Below are positions 2,232 to 11,355 of a DNA stretch of 64,000 bases, in pieces (within the stretch, counting starts at the first letter, position 1; the number at the start of each line of letters is the position of its first letter). Origin of the DNA: an uncultured Pseudomonadota bacterium. Lineage in GTDB: Bacteria; Desulfobacterota; Desulfobulbia; Desulfobulbales; Desulfocapsaceae. The position numbers and the translations under genes are program-made. The notes beneath the pieces were generated by a model, which searched no databases, was not told where the DNA came from, and worked only from the letters and a program-made list of their open reading frames with translations. The stretch is from positions 46,651 through 110,650 of the forward strand of contig CAVZOB010000011.1 of the NCBI GenBank assembly GCA_963776835.1, given 5' to 3'.

Positions 2232-2260
2232 AGCCTCATATCAAAAAGGGATGGTCAAAA

Positions 2261-2977
2261 ATGCGGCATAAATCACATAGAGCTAACAAGAAAAAGATTC
2301 TCTATTGGCAGCTTTCTCAGAGGAAGCAACGAGATGCTTTTATCAGCTTGCGGCAACAAATACGGGATAAATCTTCAGTATATGGTGGCCAATTTATCAG
2401 TCCCCATGTTCTCAATGAACCTGGCCGTCCTGCTTTATATAACCAATGGGCCGATGCGTACTTTCTTGGCAGTGATGGGCGAACTATCTGGAATGCCACC
2501 ATCGTCACGGCTGGTCGAGAATTTTGGGATATTGTCGAAGAGATGGCAGATTCACGAGCGCGGGAGATGCTAACCACTGAAGAACAATCAGCAGAGGTGG
2601 ATATTAAATTTGAGCCTATTTGGTCACATGGCCAGCGAATGTACCGCATGATTGAAAGGCCAAAATTGATCTACGAAAAATTTGGCGGGCTCACCCTTTA
2701 CGAATATCAAGACAAACTGGTCGAAAAAATCATTCTGCACGAACCGCCGGAAGTATTTGAATCCTTTACCATGGATCGCTCTTACCGCTATGGTATTGGG
2801 CTGAATATTATCATCAATGTTGATGAAATCAATCAGGCAAGCATAGAGGAAGCGATTCGTAGATTCCGCGAGACAGGGGAAACCAACTGGTCGGCGGCCC
2901 AGCCGGTTTTGCGAAATGAGCTTCCCATGGAGAGTGCCAATTCCGCATTCAGTAAAATACGGTGGGAGCCAAAATGA
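2261..2977 (+). CDS. Hypothetical protein (238 aa, no recognisable motif)
   Basis: Intact ORF with an AAGGGA-like RBS about 10 nt upstream. It lies in visibly AT-richer DNA at the edge of the island. Product unknown. Confidence 0.5.
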   Translation: MRHKSHRANKKKILYWQLSQRKQRDAFISLRQQIRDKSSVYGGQFISPHVLNEPGRPALYNQWADAYFLGSDGRTIWNATIVTAGREFWDIVEEMADSRAREMLTTEEQSAEVDIKFEPIWSHGQRMYRMIERPKLIYEKFGGLTLYEYQDKLVEKIILHEPPEVFESFTMDRSYRYGIGLNIIINVDEINQASIEEAIRRFRETGETNWSAAQPVLRNELPMESANSAFSKIRWEPK

Positions 2978-3152
2978 GGTTGGGAAATGATAGGTCACAT
3001 AGAATTGAGATGAGCAATAGATCATTTTTGGGCAGATCTTCACTCAATTATCTTTTGTCTATTTTGAAATATTTATGGTTATAATGAGTTATACATAGTT
3101 ATATCATGGATTAGATATAAGCCGATATAATTCTATAGAGGTGAGATCAATA

Positions 3153-4337
3153 ATGGACAAAATAAATAATCCCTTCTCCCCTGGGGCGGGTTCCCCGCCT
3201 CCGGAACTTGCTGGTCGTGATGAAGTATTGGAGCAAGCCCGTATATTATTGGGACGCATACGCGCCAAACGGCCAGAAAAGAGCTTGTTACTCACCGGTC
3301 TACGCGGGGTGGGGAAGACTGTTTTGTTGAATGAAATTGAGCGGATGGCTCAAGATACGCACTACCGCACGATTCTGGTCGAGGCACATGAGGGGAAATC
3401 CTTGGCAGTCTTGCTGGCCCCGCATCTCCGGCGTCTGCTGTTCAATATAGATCGGATCGCCGGGGCTGGTAACAAAGTGCGGCGCAGCTTTTCTGTACTT
3501 AAAAGTTTTGTGGGCGCAATTAAAATCACGGTTGGCGAGATTGATATTGGTCTGGACATTGAACCAGAGGCGGGTTCTGCTGATAGCGGAGATCTTGAGG
3601 TTGATCTTCCCAGTCTTTTTATGGCCGTGGGCGAGGCAGCTCAAGAACGAGGCGTGGCAATTGCTCTCCTGATTGACGAAATTCAATATTTCAGCACATC
3701 AGAACTCAGTGCCCTGATTATGGCCATGCACAAGATGCAGCAGCGACAGCTTCCTTTGGTTTTGATCGGTGCTGGTTTGCCAATTTTACCAGGTCTGGCA
3801 GGGGAATCGAAATCATACGCCGAGCGACTGTTCAGTTTCCCGGAGGTCGGCCCATTACCGGAGCCAGATGCTATCAAGGCCCTCCAGGAACCGGTAATGA
3901 TGGCTGGAAAATCGTTTGAGCCGGCCGCATTACGAGAGATTTTTCGGCTGACACGGGGGTATCCGTATTTCCTCCAGGAATGGGGTTACCAGGCATGGAA
4001 TCACGCTGCTGCTTCGCCGATCACTTTGCAAGTGGTTCAGGAGGCAAGCGATTTGGTCTCCAGGCGATTGGACGAGAATTTCTTCCGTGTTCGGTTTGAC
4101 CGCTTGACCCCACGAGAAAAAAAGTTTCTCCGGGCCATGGCTGAACTGGGAGCAGGCCCATATCGTACAGGCGATGTTGCCGACAAGCTGAAGGTAAAGA
4201 TCAGCACAATTGGGCCGTTGCGTGCCGGTTTGATTAAAAAAGGGATGATATATAGTCCATCCTATGGCGATATGGCTTTCACTGTTCCATTGTTTGATGA
4301 GTTCATGCGGCGCGCGATCTCTACATTGGAGGGATGA
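3153..4337 (+). CDS. AAA+ ATPase (Orc1/Cdc6-like or archaeal-type ATPase) with probable C-terminal winged helix
   Basis: Walker A is GLRGVGKT and Walker B is LLIDEIQY. The N-terminal FSPG...ELAGRDEVL lead-in is typical of this ATPase class. ATG 3153 is preceded by AGAGGTGA; the track ORF starts at GTG 3141. Confidence 0.7.
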   Translation: MDKINNPFSPGAGSPPPELAGRDEVLEQARILLGRIRAKRPEKSLLLTGLRGVGKTVLLNEIERMAQDTHYRTILVEAHEGKSLAVLLAPHLRRLLFNIDRIAGAGNKVRRSFSVLKSFVGAIKITVGEIDIGLDIEPEAGSADSGDLEVDLPSLFMAVGEAAQERGVAIALLIDEIQYFSTSELSALIMAMHKMQQRQLPLVLIGAGLPILPGLAGESKSYAERLFSFPEVGPLPEPDAIKALQEPVMMAGKSFEPAALREIFRLTRGYPYFLQEWGYQAWNHAAASPITLQVVQEASDLVSRRLDENFFRVRFDRLTPREKKFLRAMAELGAGPYRTGDVADKLKVKISTIGPLRAGLIKKGMIYSPSYGDMAFTVPLFDEFMRRAISTLEG

Positions 4338-4676
4338 TAATGACTATGATAGTGAGGATCGTGTCGTATATTGAATAGTCCTTAGCAACTTGATGTTTGG
4401 GGTCATTATCTCCTTTTTAGTTTGCTAAGATATTTTGGAAGTACGATGACTTTGGCCGTTGCGAAGGTGCTCAGGAAAGAAGCTTTAATTTGCATTTTTC
4501 TTTATGAGGTTAACATTGCCACTGGCATCTTTTTAATTCTTCGCCTGAAATTCCTAGTAAAAATATTTCACCTGTGATTGAATAAATTAAACCTGTTAGA
4601 TACTCTGTTCGAGGTCAAGCGATTTTTTTGTGTTTTTTTGTTATTTTAATGTGTCAATATGCAGCACCGTGCGTAG

Positions 4677-4842
4677 CATGGAGAGGGAAAGTAATCAAGG
4701 CCAAGCCCCTTCGGGGTTCTCGCTGAAAAGCGCTCGCAGCCTTGACTACTTTCCCCCACCATACTTGACCTGAGGGTGGTGAAGGCGATGGGGCGCCATG
4801 CCTCCGGCGTGGCTCAGGTTCAAGGGCTGTTACTCTCTGATG
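4677..4842. ncRNA. Candidate structured non-coding element (GC-rich multi-helix fold), strand unresolved
   Basis: Closing helix is 4677-4685/4833-4842. A 16-bp helix 4686-4701/4739-4754 encloses ccccTTCGgggg and cgctGAAAagcg hairpins. Further helices are 4756-4760/4775-4779 and 4784-4791/4796-4802. The flanks are AT-rich. It lies 60 nt 3' of the IS110 recombinase stop. Confidence 0.4.
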
Positions 4843-6135
4843 ATTTTGCAAACCTTTCATCTTTGTCATTCATAACAATATAGAATCACAGCTTATCTTG
4901 CTCATGCTGGTAAGGCATAAAACCGAGAGCCGTCAAACGGTTGGTTGTTTTTCAACATGCCGTGGATGGCATGAAGCATTTTTCGCATGATCGCACAGAT
5001 TACCTGTAATGGTTTCTTGCCCTTATCTGTAAGGTGTTGAGCATAGGCCTTAATGTGTCGATCGTGCTGCTTGGCACTCAAGGCCGGCATATAAAGTGCT
5101 GCCCGAAGACGGCCATTTCCCGCTTTGGCCAGCCGTGCTTGCTTGTGAACGCTTTTGCCGGACTCGAAAATACGTGGATCAAGTCCTGCTGATTTCACCC
5201 ATTGTTTGGGGGTCAGTCCTGGCGGCAGAAGCAGAATTTCCCCAATAAGGGCGATGCCGCTGGTTTCCGCGATGCCCGTACAGGTCAGCAATAGGTTGAA
5301 TATGTGTTTGATCTCAGGGTATTTGTCAATCATGCCCAAGGCGCTTTTAGTTAAGTTGTCAATCCGTTGTTCTAACTGGCTGATGGCCAGACGAGCATCA
5401 TCCAGCACAGCTTCTGAGTTTTCCCCTGAAGCCTTTAAAGCGTGCAGGTGATTTTTGGAAGCAGCTTTTTGACGAGTAAGCGTGTTAATACGGCGAGATA
5501 AGCTGCGCGTGGCAACTTTTTCCTTGGACGGGCGTATCCAGGCGACAAAATCCATTCTCTCGGCGTATATGGCCAGCGTGTCGGCATCAATAGCATCCGA
5601 CTTGCTATTTTTCATCAATACTTTCGCAAAGTTGCGCGAAGACTTGGGGTTGACCACCATCAGCTTTATACCAGCATCGTGGATGGCGACAGACAGATCA
5701 AAAGAATAGACGCCTGTCGCCTCCAGGCATACGGTAACTTCTCCTAATGAGAGGAGTTTTTTTACCAATCGAGCATGATCCGCTGAGTTGTTGGCGAACG
5801 TCCGGGCCTTGTCAGAGACACCATCTCTACGAATGACAAGAACCAGCTCCTCGGAGCCAACATCAATTCCTGCAAAAATTTGTTTGATGCTTTGCGCTTG
5901 GTGTTTAATCTGAGTGCTCATGCTGTTTGTCCTTGAGGTTAAATGATAATAAAGTAAACTATTCACTGGTTCCCCGACCCTGCACATGCGCCTATCGACC
6001 TTGTGTATGCAGGCTCTAAGCCTCAGATACTCCGCGATATTGGCGAATAGGGCGGGGGGCCAATCTACAAAACAGGCTCTGGTTAAAAACCAGTCCTCAG
6101 GGTGCGACGACCTCCCACAGTGAACCCTAAATTTC
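4843..6135 (-). mobile_element. IS110-family insertion sequence (boundaries approximate; may also include 4677-4842)
   Basis: Contains the intact IS110-type recombinase gene plus about 210 nt of GC-rich 5' leader. No terminal inverted repeats were found, which is usual for IS110 proper. Confidence 0.55.
4902..5921 (-). CDS. IS110-family DEDD recombinase/transposase
   Basis: 339 aa. N-terminal motifs are GIDVGSE and CLEATGVY. C-terminal motifs are GIAETSGIALIGEI and AGLDPRIFESGKS, matching the DEDD_Tnp_IS110 plus Transposase_20 architecture. ATG 5921 is preceded by AAGGA. Confidence 0.9.
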   Translation of the reverse strand: MSTQIKHQAQSIKQIFAGIDVGSEELVLVIRRDGVSDKARTFANNSADHARLVKKLLSLGEVTVCLEATGVYSFDLSVAIHDAGIKLMVVNPKSSRNFAKVLMKNSKSDAIDADTLAIYAERMDFVAWIRPSKEKVATRSLSRRINTLTRQKAASKNHLHALKASGENSEAVLDDARLAISQLEQRIDNLTKSALGMIDKYPEIKHIFNLLLTCTGIAETSGIALIGEILLLPPGLTPKQWVKSAGLDPRIFESGKSVHKQARLAKAGNGRLRAALYMPALSAKQHDRHIKAYAQHLTDKGKKPLQVICAIMRKMLHAIHGMLKNNQPFDGSRFYALPA

Positions 6136-6259
6136 CTAAATTTTACTTAACCTCATTCTGAACATTTTGTTGTATTTGTTTGTCGTTTGATCATACAAGG
6201 GTGCGCATTTAACGGGCGTCAGGGATTGACAGCCCCCACTGAAAAGGGAAGGAACCAAA

Positions 6260-6451
6260 ATGATGAACTTCGGATACAGCGGCGTCTTGGGCCTCCTGAT
6301 ACTGATCGGAGATATCTGGGCAATTATCAATATTTTCCAAAGCTCTGCTTCGAACGAGAAGAAGCTGATTTGGATAATCGCAGTGGTGCTGCTGCCCGTG
6401 CTGGGCTTGATCCTCTGGTTCTTCCTTGGACCGCGTAATCGAGGAGCGTAG
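6260..6451 (+). CDS. PLDc_N domain small membrane protein
   Basis: 63 aa with two TM helices and the signature GDIWAIINI...KLIWIIAVVLLPVLGLILWFFLG. A GGAAGGAA RBS lies upstream. Confidence 0.8.
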   Translation: MMNFGYSGVLGLLILIGDIWAIINIFQSSASNEKKLIWIIAVVLLPVLGLILWFFLGPRNRGA

Positions 6452-6552
6452 CGTGCCAAGTTCACTTGGCTGAAAGGCGTCCTGTCGAGAGCCTCAAGTG
6501 AGTCTGTACTGGAAAACGAGCATGCCATCGCGCGCTCAAAGGAGGTAGATTC

Positions 6553-7005
6553 GTGAAATATCGCATTACTGTGCAAGCACTATTATTGATTTGCATATTG
6601 TTTACTCTGCCTGCTCTCTCGGATGCTGAAGAAAACCGAAAAGATGGTAATTGGTGGCGCGCACAGGACAGTTTCACGCATTCCGCGTACGTGGTCGGAT
6701 TCTTTGATGGAATGGATTTGGGCCACAATCTCTCATACTTGGCTTTCGTCGAAGATAAAAGGGGCAATGATTGCATGGGCAAAGCAATTGAATCATATGC
6801 CGACTATAGCTCGAAGTATTTCAAGAATGTGACAAACGTGCAGATCGTGGACGGTCTTGATTCCTTTTATACTAACTTTCGCAATCGTTACACTAGGGTA
6901 GCTGATGCCGTCTGGTTAGTTGTCAATCGCATTGCAGAAAGTGGCCCCGGAAATAATTTGAACAAGCCGTTAAGTGGAAAATCTGCTACAAATAATGCCT
7001 TCTAA
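6553..7005 (+). CDS. Hypothetical secreted protein
   Basis: GTG start preceded by AAAGGAGG. There is an N-terminal signal-peptide-like segment (ALLLICILFTLPALSDA). No family recognised. Confidence 0.55.
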   Translation: MKYRITVQALLLICILFTLPALSDAEENRKDGNWWRAQDSFTHSAYVVGFFDGMDLGHNLSYLAFVEDKRGNDCMGKAIESYADYSSKYFKNVTNVQIVDGLDSFYTNFRNRYTRVADAVWLVVNRIAESGPGNNLNKPLSGKSATNNAF

Positions 7006-7270
7006 TGGGCTAAATTATGGAGCAGAAAATGGCGAAATGCACGAGACGGAAACATTCATCAGCATTCAAGGCGAAAGTGGCGCGGTATTCGTGCATGTGA
7101 TTGCAGTCGTTAATATTGCCACATCTAATGTCTTACTATTTCAAATGACTTCTCGGTTAACCTTACTTATAGCTGTTCCAAAGAGAGAAAAATATAAAAT
7201 GATTACATTGTGATTTAAGAGAATGCGCCTCTCCCCGTTACGAATGAGCTTACTTAACGTTGAACGTTTT

Positions 7271-8715
7271 ACAGTAGACTTTCGGGCGGGTGAGAGTGAG
7301 CTGGTTCAAACGAATACTCAGAAGACGATCATTCAAATTGTCTTGCTATAAGGACCTCGACAAACCAGCGCTGCGTATATCTTGAAACCTGTAATCAAAA
7401 TATCTTCAATTGGGGAGCTACTATGAAGAACAAAGCAACTTCATATTCGCAGCATTTGTTGGGGTCGACTGGGCTGATAAAAAACATGATGTAAGTATCT
7501 CTTCTGTGATGGAGGCAAGCCGGTTCATCAAGTAATAACCCATACCCCTGAAGCGTTAAATGAATGGCTGCTTACCTTACGCCAACAGTATCCTGATGGA
7601 CAAATTGCGGCCTGTGCCTTGAACAATCAAGGGGTGCGCTGATCTTTCACCTGCTTGGGTATGATTTTTTAACCCTCTTTCCTGTGAACCCTAAAAATCT
7701 TGCTCGTTTTCGCGAGGCGTTTACGGGTAGTGGTGCAAAGGGAGATCCGTCTGATGCCGATTACCTGAGAGAACTTGTGGCTGTTCATTATGAAAGATTA
7801 CGCCCTTGGGAGCCTGATGACGAACAAACCCGGACAATATCTTTTCTTGCCCAGGGACGTCGTCAAGTAGTGGGTGAGCGAACAAGGCTGACGAATCGAC
7901 TCCTTTCCACCCTTAAGATGTATTTCCCACAGGCTATAATGCTTGCAGGGGGAACACTTTATAAAACAATGGCCTTGGATTTTCTCAGTAAATGGCCACA
8001 ACTAAGCGATGTGCAACGAGCAAAAGATAAAACAATTCAACTTTTTTACTCTACACATAATTCGCGATCAGCAGCGCGAATCAAGGAACGTCAGGAACTT
8101 ATTCGTTCAACAATACCACTTACCTCTGATCAAGCTGTTATAAAGAGTTGTCTCATTATTGTAAAGATGCTCATTGGTCAGACTTAGTGAGCTTAATAGT
8201 GCAATTGATGAATTTGATGTGGCGCTCAGGGAGCTCTACAACGACCATGAAGATAAAAGTATCTTTGACACTTTCCCTGGCTCAGGCGAGGCTTTGGGGC
8301 CGCGTCTCCTTTGTTCTTGGGGTACTGATCGTAACCGCTATGATTCCGCAGACAGCATGCAACAATATTTAGGCATAGCGCCTGTGACAAAGGCCAGCGG
8401 TCAATCAAAAAAGGTCATACGCCGACTTGCCTGTCCGAAATTTTTACTACAAACTTTTCATGAGTTTGCAAATTCCTCACGCAGGTCATCAATATGGGCT
8501 CAAGCATATTATGAAATGCTACGAGAACGAGGAAAGTCCCATCATACAGCCATTCGAGCTCTTGCTTTTAAGTGGATCAGAATCATGTACTGCTGTTGGA
8601 AGAACAGGACTCCCTATGATGAGATTAAATACATACAAACATTAAAGAGAACAAATTCTCCTTTGTTGGGATTTGTTTAAACTATTATTGACGGAACAAC
8701 TCAGAAGTCTACTGT
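7271..8715 (+). mobile_element. Decayed IS110-family element with 11-bp terminal inverted repeats
   Basis: ACAGTAGACTT at 7271-7281 has its exact reverse complement at 8705-8715. These bracket the frameshifted recombinase gene. Confidence 0.65.
7423..8680 (+). pseudogene. IS110-family recombinase, multiple frameshifts
   Basis: Fragments in three frames carry VDWADKKHDV, FPVNPKNLARFREAF...GDPSDADYL (7684-8187) and PGSGEALGPRLL...LGIAPVTKASGQS (8174-8680). The N-terminal 260 nt are broken by stops. Confidence 0.8.
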
Positions 8716-8801
8716 TATACGTAATAAAATAACGATCGAGCTTATGGTATAATAAGGTCATCAACATCCTGTTTTTTCTATAAAAGAAGAAGGGGGACAG
8801 C

Positions 8802-9983
8802 ATGACCATACAAAATAGTATATTCGAGAGTTATTATTCCACCGATTGGAGTGACCCCACCCAATCGTCTCAATCCTATCTCATTTTATCACTCCAACAT
8901 CCTGCCAGGCAAAATACCGGGTTGATGGATAAGTTATTCCTTCCCTCTGCCGGAGCGTTGTACGTCTATCGTCCCAGCAAACGGCGTCGTGTTCTTAATC
9001 GGGTTATAGACAAACTGGAGCACAGTAATCTTCCCGGCTATGAATACGTCATTGCTCATTTGTACGACAAGTATCGTCGTAATCTTACGATCAGTACCCT
9101 TGGTCAAACCGGTCAAACCCTGAGCGGTTTTCTGACTTTTTTGCAAGAAACAGGAAGGTCGGGCATAGAGGAAATCAGCCGTAAGGCTATTGCTGATTAC
9201 ATCGACCATGAGCAGGAGAGAGGGCTGAAGATTAACTCTGTCAGGAACCACCTGCAGACACTATATGCTTTTATTCAGTACCTGATTGATAAGGATATTC
9301 TTCCCCTGGAACTCCTCCGTAAAAAGATCAGAGTCAAGTTGCCTGAAGTGTTGCCAAGGGCCATCCCCACGGAAGATCTGAGGGAAATTCTTGCTGTAAT
9401 CACATCTGTGCGAGATCGTGCCCTTATCCTGCTGTTACTCCATACCGGCATGCGTATTGGAGAGCTTCTGCAGGTAAAAATGACTGATATTATTCTGCCA
9501 GAACGAAAGATCCTGTTATTTATCGGAGAGAAGAATCTCCATGGTCGGGTTGTTTATTACAATCAAGAAGCGGAAGAAGCATTGAAGAAGTGGCTTGGTG
9601 TCAGAGACAGGAATAGTGAGTATCTGTTTTACGGGAACAGAGGTCGGGATCTCTCCTATGTGGGTGCATGGATGATAATGAAGAAGGCTACTCAGCAGGC
9701 AGGGCTAGAGCAAAAAGGGTACAGCCTCCATTCACTGCGACACACGTTCGCCACCAATATGCTCAACGCGGGATTACGTCTGGAGGTACTGCAAAAGCTT
9801 CTGGGACACCTTGATATCGATATCACCCTTCGATATGCAAAGATCGCAGATGGTACACGGGAAGAGGCATATTTCAAAGCAATGGCAGTCATCGAGAAAG
9901 GAGAAGATCATGAATATGACCGAGTCAATCCTGAACTACAGGCAGTATTTGAAGAGAAAAAATTACTCGGAGTTGACGGTTAA
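8802..9983 (+). CDS. Tyrosine recombinase/integrase (A subunit of pair)
   Basis: 393 aa with motifs RDRALILLLLHTGMRIGEL, HSLRHTFAT and LLGH...TLRY. An AAGGGGGA RBS is present. Confidence 0.9.
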   Translation: MTIQNSIFESYYSTDWSDPTQSSQSYLILSLQHPARQNTGLMDKLFLPSAGALYVYRPSKRRRVLNRVIDKLEHSNLPGYEYVIAHLYDKYRRNLTISTLGQTGQTLSGFLTFLQETGRSGIEEISRKAIADYIDHEQERGLKINSVRNHLQTLYAFIQYLIDKDILPLELLRKKIRVKLPEVLPRAIPTEDLREILAVITSVRDRALILLLLHTGMRIGELLQVKMTDIILPERKILLFIGEKNLHGRVVYYNQEAEEALKKWLGVRDRNSEYLFYGNRGRDLSYVGAWMIMKKATQQAGLEQKGYSLHSLRHTFATNMLNAGLRLEVLQKLLGHLDIDITLRYAKIADGTREEAYFKAMAVIEKGEDHEYDRVNPELQAVFEEKKLLGVDG

Positions 9984-10809
9984 GAACTACCTGCACAGAC
10001 TGAAAATGTTCTTCAGCTGGCTACCGGTAACGGTTGAGGCCGCATCGGCAACAGAGGTGAATCACTATATCGATTACTTGCTGGAAAAGAGGATGGCTCC
10101 ACGCAGTATTAACTGCCATCTTTCAGCAGTTCGTGGATTCTATGATTACCTCACCTATGAGGAAAAAGTACCATTGAACAATCCAGTTGCCAGAGGACAG
10201 ATGCTCCGTGAGCCCCATCCTCTTCCGAGATACCTTCATGACAACGAGCTCCAGCTGTTTCTGGAAAGTGTATCAAGTACCAGAGACCTTGCCATCTTTA
10301 TGTTGATGCTGCGCTGTGGTTTACGTGTCCAGGAGGTGGTTAACCTGACCCTTGACGTTATTGATTACAGACGCAGCCGGATTCTGGTCAAAGCCGGCAA
10401 AGGTGCCAGGGATCGAATCGTCTATATCAGCAATGATGCAGCAGTGGCACTGGCAAAGTACTTGAGGAAGAGACCAAAAACTAATGAGAAGCAGATCTTC
10501 CTGGCTGAGAAGGGACGCTGCAGAGGAAAACCGATCTCTGTCCGTGCAGTACAGAAACGGGTAGAGCATTATGCTCAGGAAAGTGGTGTGGCCGTAACTT
10601 GTCACAGGTTCCGGCATACGATGGCCACCAAATTACTGAATGCTGATGCTGATATCGTTTCGATTCAGGAACTGCTTGGTCATTCCAAAATCAAGACTAC
10701 CCAGCGTTACAGTAAATTGTTGAACCTGAAAGCCCAGCGTGATTATTTCAAAGCTATGGAGGTGGTGATGAGACAGACATCGACAAATCAATCTGGAATG
10801 AAAAACTGA
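9910..10809 (+). CDS. Tyrosine recombinase, XerC/D-like (B subunit of pair)
   Basis: Motifs are RDLAIFMLMLRCGLRVQEV, HRFRHTMAT and LLGHSKIKTTQRY. It overlaps the upstream recombinase by 74 nt in another frame. The start was chosen by alignment with the copy-2 protein (MNLIESIPSYKRYLRRKN). Confidence 0.85.
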   Translation: MNMTESILNYRQYLKRKNYSELTVKNYLHRLKMFFSWLPVTVEAASATEVNHYIDYLLEKRMAPRSINCHLSAVRGFYDYLTYEEKVPLNNPVARGQMLREPHPLPRYLHDNELQLFLESVSSTRDLAIFMLMLRCGLRVQEVVNLTLDVIDYRRSRILVKAGKGARDRIVYISNDAAVALAKYLRKRPKTNEKQIFLAEKGRCRGKPISVRAVQKRVEHYAQESGVAVTCHRFRHTMATKLLNADADIVSIQELLGHSKIKTTQRYSKLLNLKAQRDYFKAMEVVMRQTSTNQSGMKN

Positions 10810-10831
10810 GGTGACAATTCCGCTCCGCCAA

Positions 10832-10882
10832 GGGCCAATTCCTCCGACGAGCATTTGTTGGGCCCATTCTCGGAACTGGCCC
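10832..10882. repeat. Conserved hairpin of the two-recombinase unit (copy 1)
   Basis: Stem is GGGCCAATTCC/GGAACTGGCCC around the 29-nt loop TCCGACGAGCATTTGTTGGGCCCATTCTC. The same loop occurs in copy 2 with a different but complementary stem. Confidence 0.6.
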
Positions 10883-11233
10883 TTAACGGAGCTACCATCG
10901 GAGGAAAAACTTGACATCTGGGTACTAAATGACCAAAAATAGAGACAGGTAACACTACAATTTAAAAGAAAAAATAGGATCTATTACGTATATAGACTGT
11001 GAATCTCTAATTTTCAAAAAGTCAATATATCTCCTATAAGCCTTGACCTGTTCTGATTTTATTAATTTTCTGACACAAAAAAACATTTTTGAAAATAGGT
11101 ATTGGATGAGACCTTCCTGCCAAGACCCATCCGGCCAAAATAATTGTCACTAATTGACTGGTTGGATTTTTTTTCCGAGGGTAGCTTTGATGTTCAGTGT
11201 GGGATAGCGTGGGGGGAAAGAAAAATTTTGGCA

Positions 11234-11266
11234 CAAAAAAAGGGATTCAGATATAATCTGAATCCC
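11234..11266 (-). terminator. Rho-independent terminator after tRNA-fMet
   Basis: On the minus strand, GGGATTCAG-ATTATAT-CTGAATCCC is followed by TTTTTTT. Confidence 0.8.
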
Positions 11267-11278
11267 TTGAATTTGTTA

Positions 11279-11355
<77 letters not shown>

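Follow-up and report, generated by a model that had tools for sequence, protein, structure and literature searches.

A two-recombinase, insertion-sequence-like element with lineage-typical junction spacers in Desulfobulbales and Syntrophales

The stretch of DNA considered here (the window: 64,000 nucleotides of contig CAVZOB010000011.1, from an uncultured bacterium of the Desulfocapsaceae) holds two compact units, copy 1 and copy 2, in which overlapping genes for two tyrosine recombinases, A and B, lie between short terminal inverted repeats. A first-pass annotation had described them as units of 2277 and 2284 bp sharing one architecture, which is borne out by their coordinates, open reading frames (ORFs) and domains (Table 1). 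Both are real, intact members of a large and apparently undescribed transposon family of sediment bacteria that relies on two recombinases; searches of the open-access literature gave no account of an element that has two recombinases and resembles an insertion sequence (IS).

Two recombinase genes between conserved ends

Copies 1 and 2 follow a common plan, consisting of the terminal repeat TATACGTAA(T/C), an 85-nt leader, gene A, gene B, a non-coding tail of ~180 nt (183 nt in copy 1) and the inverted repeat. The unit length is 2277-2284 bp in the copies of this genome, with an A protein of 393-399 amino acids (aa) and a B protein of 299 aa. The ends originally read as TATACGTAAT/ATTACGTATA in copy 1, and as TATACGTAACAAAA with its complement in copy 2, are as described then, and so is the overlap of the two genes in different frames, by 74 nt in copy 1 and 89 nt in copy 2 (B2 being counted from its ATG). 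This overlap amounts to 53-89 nt in nearly every intact element checked (14 nt in L066), and the two-gene layout is kept across subfamilies down to ~40% protein identity. A programmed frameshift leading to an A-B fusion was considered and dropped, as the A-run within the overlap is not conserved.

All four proteins of the window contain a Phage_integrase catalytic domain and a SAM-like core-binding domain. Residues R218, K244, H310, R313, H336 and Y345 of A are invariant among 32 homologues, and their equivalents in B among 3 homologues; the catalytic residues are intact in both proteins. N-terminal to the two domains, A1 has a variable tail, followed by a beta-hairpin and two extra helices. 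In an AlphaFold model of A (pLDDT 73.6), residues 1-42 are disordered, 42-56 form a low-confidence beta-hairpin (with strands at 42-47 and 51-56 that carry a pLDDT of only 51-61) and 60-92 form the extra helices. A1 and A2 are 50% identical and B1 and B2 60%, close to the one half that had been estimated by eye, while A and B share 30% identity. Upstream, the left end carries an extended -10-like motif, TGnTATAAT (36 distinct left ends from 45 elements), and the box CCTGTTTTTTCT recurs in inverted orientation 15-27 nt from the right end; the leader is promoter-like.

A search of the whole 3.13-Mb assembly (12 contigs), as had been recommended, yielded a third intact copy of 2277 bp (C4:58071-60347). 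The three copies are pairwise only 58-71% identical in DNA and therefore represent separate lineages and not recent duplicates, in line with the earlier view that the copies are old or independently acquired. Across the assembly, TATACGTAA or its complement occurs only at the ends of elements, six times in all, where ~24 occurrences would be the expectation for a random 9-mer. The element is bounded by perfect inverted repeats of 11-15 bp, (g)TATACGTAAC ... GTTACGTATA(c).

Relatives were collected by a scan with protein A of one genome per species, which gave 466 stretches, of which 79 loci were kept; in 42 of these, neither end departs from the motif by more than one mismatch. The ends are therefore shared by at least 42 elements outside this genome, as the first-pass annotation had anticipated, making 45 in all with the three own copies (2107-2284 bp). 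Their hosts are mostly Desulfobulbales (Desulfocapsaceae, Desulfobulbaceae) and Syntrophales (Smithellaceae). One Desulfobulbus genome carries five copies that are identical over 2278/2278 positions at five different loci, a second genome has three copies at different loci, and long-read assemblies carry several copies each. The copy-1 lineage is found with 94-97% full-length identity in four other metagenome-assembled genomes (MAGs), at other insertion sites. The distribution is patchy, with carriers in 16 of the 151 genomes and 13 of the 58 genera of the host's order. The possibility that A and B are ordinary, separate xer genes, which had also been raised, does not hold: they always lie in a bounded unit of 2.1-2.3 kb, which is multi-copy, patchy and, within some genomes, 100% identical.

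In metagenomes, 2130 protein clusters match A (E <= 1e-10), with only generic names ('integrase/recombinase XerD'), and the longest contigs of these clusters are typically ~2.2-2.5 kb, the pattern to be expected of a repeat at which assemblies break. Two cultured strains likewise have whole-element contigs, of 2161 and 2212 bp, and both stop exactly at the points of expected divergence between copies (on the left after four shared bases, on the right after the +1 base plus 7 bases). The element is multi-copy in the cultured Desulfogranum marinum DSM 2058 and Desulfofustis glycolicus DSM 9705, both of them strains of public collections.

Table 1. Features of copy 1, copy 2 and their surroundings (positions are those of the window)
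Feature	Position	Strand	Basis or remarks
Copy 1, whole unit	8716-10992	+	2277 bp
Copy 1, left-flank spacer CTACTGT, target's copy	8709-8715	+	junction comparison with L009, L012, L022
Copy 1, left terminal inverted repeat TATACGTAATA	8716-8726	+	end comparison
Copy 1, leader	8745-8779	+	left-end alignment; extended -10-like TGGTATAAT (8745-8753), GGTCATCAA box, subterminal box CCTGTTTTTTCT (8768-8779); box functions putative
Recombinase A1, 393 aa	8802-9983	+	ORF, domain and homologue comparison
Recombinase B1, 299 aa, Xer-like	9910-10809	+	+1 frame; overlap with A1 74 nt
Copy 1, tail hairpin, 21-bp stem and conserved apex	10822-10892	-	bottom-strand fold
Copy 1, CTTGAC box and weak -10-like hexamer	10910-10940	+	invariant box; TTGACA-18-AAAAAT
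Copy 1, right end	10967-10992	+	inverted subterminal box AGAAAAAATAGG (10967-10978); terminal repeat TATTACGTATA (10982-10992)
Copy 1, right flank	10993-11000	+	+1 arm base T, then element-borne spacer AGACTGT
Copy 2, whole unit	46095-48378	-	2284 bp
Copy 2, right flank	46087-46094	-	+1 arm base C (46094); element-borne spacer TCAGGAA (46093-46087)
Copy 2, right end	46095-46178	-	terminal repeat GTTACGTATA (46104-46095), inverted subterminal box AGAAAAAACAGG, CTTGAC box (46178-46173)
Copy 2, tail hairpin	46197-46267	+	folding strand is the element's bottom strand, i.e. the window + strand
Recombinase B2	46294-47181	-	295 aa from ATG; 299 aa from upstream GTG at 47193
Recombinase A2, 399 aa	47093-48292	-	ORF
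Copy 2, leader and left terminal repeat TATACGTAACAAAA	48293-48378	-	end comparison
Copy 2, left-flank spacer TCAGGAA, target's copy	48380-48386	-	junction comparison
Target context of copy 2: end of ~270-300-bp genus-wide repeat	45822-46094	+	repeat terminates in CTTCTTCCTGA
AAA ATPase gene, low-GC island	3141-4337		
IS110-family transposase, intact, low-GC island	4902-5987	-	
IS110 transposase, truncated and frameshifted, low-GC island	7684-8680		
tRNA near end of low-GC island	11282-11355	-	distance given as 286 nt

Junction spacers, target sites and tail signals

Comparison of 39 independent insertions at their junctions shows in each a pair of 7-nt words, the left one spanning -8..-2 and the right one +2..+8; with the -1 and +1 bases (g/c, a/t or c/g), the inverted repeat usually reaches 11 bp. 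Left and right words are the same in 19 of the 39 insertions and differ in the other 20. Counting position 7 as the one that touches the element's left end, the match rates at positions 1-7 of the differing pairs are 0.05, 0.20, 0.25, 0.80, 0.70, 0.90 and 0.95, and with the register moved by one or two bases the match is 0.18-0.24. The two spacers thus have to match only at the four positions adjoining the left end.

Within a lineage the right word is constant or one or two bases off, whereas the left word is variable, so that the right word is the element's and the left word the target's. AGACTGT, or a one- or two-base variant, stands on the right in 13 insertions of the copy-1 lineage, with A proteins down to 62% identical; the word itself is common to copy 1, L009, L012 and L017-L022, and the variants occur in L010, L011, L013, L035 and L060. 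Two further insertions (L054 and L057) have AAACTGT, and the lineage of copies 2 and 3 has (T/G)CAGGAA. In the lineages represented by more than one insertion, 19 insertions have differing words, and all 19 have the spacer typical of their lineage (exact, or one or two bases off) on the right; no copy has a sister copy's left spacer on its right. The flanking 7-mers are copies of a crossover spacer and not target-site duplications. The flanking words given by the first-pass annotation (TTCCTGA for copy 2, TCTACTGT versus TAGACTGT for copy 1) are present, as stated, but as spacer copies and not as duplications. In the Smithellaceae subfamily both words are CTTCCTG, which makes those insertions uninformative on polarity. 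In elements of this subfamily (2107-2119 bp; L072, L073, L065, L080, L087) the 60-80 nt past the right spacer are similar between copies and genomes, and these elements may sit in another repeat or have a longer right end than defined here.

The DNA around the spacer fits, over all insertions compared, the imperfect palindrome AAsATTn-[7 nt]-nAATsTT. Its 11-7-11 layout resembles the Xer/dif core site, and its arms differ in sequence from those of the element (GTTACGTATAc). For copy 2, the target TTCCTGA is supplied by the repeat end CTTCTTCCTGA, whose last base abuts the right end of the element. Uninserted ends of the repeat, followed by unrelated DNA, were found in L109-L112, in L114 and in the paralogue of the window (49117-49340), and in L113, from a different genome of the genus, a comparable repeat end is occupied by an element. 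A second type of insert at the repeat end (L111, L112) was rejected, being native flank. The empty site of copy 2 may have read AACCTTC-TTCCTGA-AAAGTCG. Paralogues and 40 relatives yielded no empty site for any of the three own copies, whose flanks are either unconserved or mobile elements themselves. Three elements of the copy-1 lineage with the spacer AGACTGA (L010, L011, L013) lie at ...ACCTTCTTCCTGA sequences in the opposite orientation, with only CTGA in common. At the repeat end CTTCTTCCTGA, then, the lineage of copy 2 (TCAGGAA) is found in one orientation and elements of the copy-1 lineage (AGACTGA) in the other, which indicates that orientation is set by each lineage's spacer. The same terminal sequence is thus used as a target by two lineages, in an orientation dictated by their respective spacers.

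The tail hairpin, already recognised as conserved in the first-pass annotation, also covaries. Its 21-bp stem surrounds a conserved apex, which on the top strand reads TCCGACGAGC-N7-10-GGCCCATTCTC (22 distinct tails). In the alignment 98.2% of the cells are paired, double changes occur in 13 of the 16 stem pairs, and the observed score was reached by 0 of 500 shuffles. Departures of the wobble type are one-sided, with 44 C.A on the coding strand, equivalent to G.T (G.U) on the bottom strand, and 0 of the opposite kind; the alignment folds at -37.6 kcal/mol for the bottom strand versus -18.1 for the top strand. Both observations indicate that the hairpin works as a single-stranded nucleic acid of the bottom strand, which could be either an antisense RNA or a single-stranded-DNA signal. 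Apart from a neighbouring tRNA, Rfam gave no match in either copy or tail. A covariance model finds the hairpin in 20 of 41 relatives, and in 9 of its 11 strongest matches whose loci were read the right end is 147-149 nt away. In some subfamilies it is replaced by plain palindromes. Two candidate roles were discarded: a small bottom-strand protein across the apex (the length of the apex varies), and a guide for the spacer in the variable loop (copies 1 and 2 have the same loop and different spacers).

Further towards the right end, at a distance of 81-84 nt, the box CTTGAC is invariant in 36 of 36 distinct tails, and a weak -10-like hexamer follows it after 16-18 nt in 24 of the 36. It could be either an outward promoter or an accessory binding site. 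A decayed solo tail elsewhere in the genome (C7:324752-324990) has the hairpin, the CTTGAC box and a degenerate right end, GTTACCTATAC, with no adjoining recombinase genes.

Movement of the element and its relation to known systems

Tyrosine recombinases cleave at the 5' edges of the overlap, and the first exchange needs homology beside the cleavage site. Seen against this background, the element is quite probably an autonomous, cargo-less, IS-like transposable element that is driven by its two tyrosine recombinases and integrates bottom strand first, guided by spacer homology. The excised form would carry the junction right arm - spacer - left arm. Integration would start with a bottom-strand exchange at the boundary of spacer and left arm, requiring ~4 nt of homology, after which the intermediate would be completed in such a way that only the bottom-strand product is inherited, through replication or a one-strand copy-out/copy-in route. 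The expected order is target arm, target spacer, element arm at the left junction, and element arm, element spacer, target arm at the right one; inheritance of the bottom-strand product alone would account for the constant placing of the two spacers, the target's on the left and the element's on the right. Since the right spacer is constant across deep lineages, excision must again cross between spacer and left arm and carry the right spacer along, and as the end spacers are direct repeats, recombination between the ends would excise the element and not invert it. Each of A and B would bind its own type of arm, in the manner of XerC and XerD at dif. CTX phage and integron cassettes are established examples of a one-strand exchange that replication completes, although the recombination site of the element, unlike integron attC, is not inside a folded hairpin.

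Several points weigh against this mechanism. The order of strands presupposes the usual tyrosine-recombinase geometry, with cleavage at the 5' spacer edges. That A and B probably bind different arm types is purely deduced, by analogy, from the fact that element and target arms differ and each junction has one of each. Neither a circular junction nor an empty orthologous site, an excision product or a transcript was seen directly, and the junction pattern TTACGTATA-N7-11-TATACGTAA gave at least 120 matches in metagenome contigs, none of them in the context of the element among the matches listed. The own copies are old lineages, so that recent movement is shown only in other genomes. Either window copy may moreover be impaired: in copy 1 the left junction runs from CTACTGT directly into TATACG, without the -1 A that is present in L009, L012 and L022 (CTACTGT-A|TATACG), and in copy 2 the -1 base (48379) is A where sister elements have G. 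Finally, the hairpin is absent from the 2107-bp subfamily and is therefore not essential to transposition, being accessory and not part of the core. The mechanism is unusually well constrained by the comparative evidence, from which we infer the strand order, the form of the intermediate and the parts played by the two recombinases, the hairpin and the CTTGAC box.

A bolder view, which we consider doubtful, takes the element as a sixth, minimal class of prokaryotic tyrosine-recombinase transposon that moves as a single-stranded circle of the bottom strand. A 2023 paper distinguishes five groups of such transposons, namely ICE/IME, SE, GInt, RIT (recombinase-in-trio) and Tn554; the movement of RIT and GInt has never been reproduced and the route of Tn554 is left unsettled (PMC10214605). 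In the single-stranded circle the paired terminal repeats would present the 7-nt spacer as a loop, allowing the target to be searched by base pairing, the tail hairpin (with its bottom-strand-only fold) would signal second-strand synthesis, and the two recombinases would share the work, one acting at the arms of the element and its partner at those of the target. Editing four to seven spacer bases would then reprogram the choice of target.

At the other, more conventional end, the element could be an ordinary cut-and-paste integrative element, as are Tn916 and CTnDOT, in which both strands are exchanged and a double-stranded circle carries a heteroduplex spacer, the apparent polarity being due to biased mismatch repair or sampling. 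Arms with a 7-nt spacer are indeed the standard layout of a core site, and partial homology confined to one side of the overlap is likewise the rule for IntDOT (PMC2817482). Random resolution of the heteroduplex should however place the element's spacer on the left about as often as on the right among mismatched insertions, whereas it is on the right in 19 of 19, and the right spacer is kept with only small changes across lineages that are only 62% identical in A, which makes ordinary cut-and-paste unlikely.

In its working the element resembles the SEs and Tn554 most, with the target spacer on the left and its own on the right. In SEs, with strict strand bias, insertion leaves the spacer of the target at attL, the left junction proximal to the recombinases, and the spacer brought by the element at attR on the right (PMC10214605). 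The same arrangement is found in all mismatched insertions of the multi-insertion lineages (19/19). Like SEs, moreover, the element has two catalytic tyrosine recombinases, short terminal inverted repeats and a short spacer (6 bp in SEs, 7 in the element). This is a likeness in working and not membership: an SE has four genes (intA, tfp, intB, srap), cargo and a median length of 15.7 kb, is confined to Gammaproteobacteria, and its circle picks up the left spacer, so that the footprint changes with each hop (PMC10214605). The element, by contrast, keeps its right spacer across lineages and has two genes, no cargo, 2.1-2.3 kb and hosts in Desulfobulbales and Syntrophales, outside the phylum of the SE hosts; with two genes only, it lacks the four-gene core of SEs (intA-tfp-intB-srap) and of GInts (ginA-D) alike.

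Tn554 and its relatives in Staphylococcus and Enterococcus encode TnpA, TnpB (~630 aa) and TnpC, the last of which is needed; Tn554 carries resistance genes, prefers one att site and has at its right junction the core from its previous site. The element shares with it a tandem pair of tyrosine recombinases, the lack of a true target duplication and asymmetric short junction cores. It differs, in a comparison by description, in that B is 299 aa long and no third ORF lies in the 2.3-kb unit, and carry-over of a previous-site core is not seen, the right spacer being the same or one or two bases off across lineages. The RIT elements are likewise cargo-less, IS-like units with overlapping tyrosine recombinase genes between inverted repeats, multi-copy in some genomes. 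To our knowledge, no spacer rule is known for RIT. They have three genes (ritA-ritB-ritC) with overlaps of 4-8 bp, and repeats of ~34 bp (Van Houdt 2012, PMC3414803; Ricker 2013), compared to two genes in the three own copies and in the elements checked elsewhere, overlaps of 53-89 nt (14 nt in one) and repeats of 11-15 bp.

A and B could nevertheless be what remains of a RIT or Tn554 element that has lost its third gene, either moved in trans or a fossil, and in any case non-autonomous. These are the nearest multi-recombinase transposons (PMC10214605), and the two N-terminal beta-strands in the AlphaFold model of A are a feature described for the TnpA subgroup of Tn554 (PMC8138268), which A may thus share, as far as the low-confidence model goes. 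Such a derivation is nonetheless quite improbable: nearly all intact elements checked have the two-gene layout with its long overlap, the unit contains no third gene, and protein A searches in genomes with 100%-identical multi-copy sets found only further copies of the element. Compared with RitA, RitB and RitC of plasmid pMLa, A and B are only 24-27% identical over long alignments (E 1e-5 to 1e-15), a similarity weaker than that to Xer models; Tn554 itself was set against the element by description.

The nearest sequences to A and B are XerA, XerC and XerD, with scores of 133-199 bits against equivalog cut-offs of 220-335. The 11-7-11 sites, and two paralogous recombinases that possibly act on two arm types, recall XerC/XerD at dif. 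However, the XerC/XerD/XerA resolvases are single, conserved housekeeping copies, whereas the A/B genes are mobile, multi-copy, self-contained and patchy, and lie in low-GC islands rich in mobile elements. An integron integrase is not indicated either, as the IntI model TIGR02249 scores 68-118 bits against a cut-off of 265 and no attC array is present, nor is a gamma-mobile-trio, for which the GmtY and GmtZ models score 18-26 bits against cut-offs of 340-600. The unit contains no DDE domain, and its flanking 7-mers differ in 20 of 39 insertions with the right one fixed within a lineage, which sets it apart from DDE insertion sequences. A bipartite module (BIM) was rejected, as this consists of one recombinase and an SMC-like protein. 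A plasmid search gave nothing above 33% identity, the best rhizobial matches being IS91-linked integrases. The initial impression of a compact, site-specific two-recombinase transposable unit outside the named families thus stands with respect to RIT, Tn554, SE, Xer and integrons.

It is hardly credible, finally, that the recombinases flip the 2.3-kb segment as an invertible switch whose outward CTTGAC promoter-like box drives either flank: the perfect terminal inverted repeats, the fixed distance of the box from the right end and a weak similarity to models of tyrosine-type DNA invertases would fit, but the asymmetric 7-nt end spacers are direct repeats and dictate excision, identical copies lie at many loci, the distribution is patchy and the invertase models score 32-54 bits against cut-offs of 221-222.

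With a system cut down to two genes and ~300 nt of ends, and a spacer rule that can be read in natural insertions, the element is a possible minimal model for DNA transposition by tyrosine recombinases. Both strand-biased recombinase transposition and the need for two recombinases become directly testable in the cultured carriers. If spacer homology truly guides insertion, the element is also a candidate for a small, retargetable integration tool. For genomics, it is of relevance that it breaks short-read assemblies of Desulfobulbales and Syntrophales, and that its genes are labelled XerC or XerD.

Genomic surroundings

Copy 1 lies in a low-GC island (window 2240-11280; 42-49%, compared to 55-60% in the flanks), together with the genes listed in Table 1. 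Copy 2 has a TauE-family gene and the repeat as neighbours at one end and a universal stress protein gene at the opposite end. Copy 3 adjoins a DDE transposase gene with two further copies in the genome; the IS with a DDE_Tnp_1_4 transposase next to copy 3 (L008:5548-6897, own genome C4) has two further copies, on C7 and C11. Among the relatives, a variant of 3.3 kb (L032, from a Desulfobulbaceae MAG) contains a decayed fragment of a DDE (rve-like) transposase at 2100-2850, between B and the right end; its extra DNA was rejected as cargo, since it is this nested fragment.

The non-coding repeat of the window (45822-46094 and 49117-49340) is ~230-300 bp long, starts with GGTG(A/G)TAAGAA(T/C)TCGCTTTCCAGTGG and ends in ...GCAACTTTAGCTT(C/A)T(T/A)CCTGA. 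It has no match in Rfam, and the same repeat occurs in many genomes of the genus and elsewhere in this genome.

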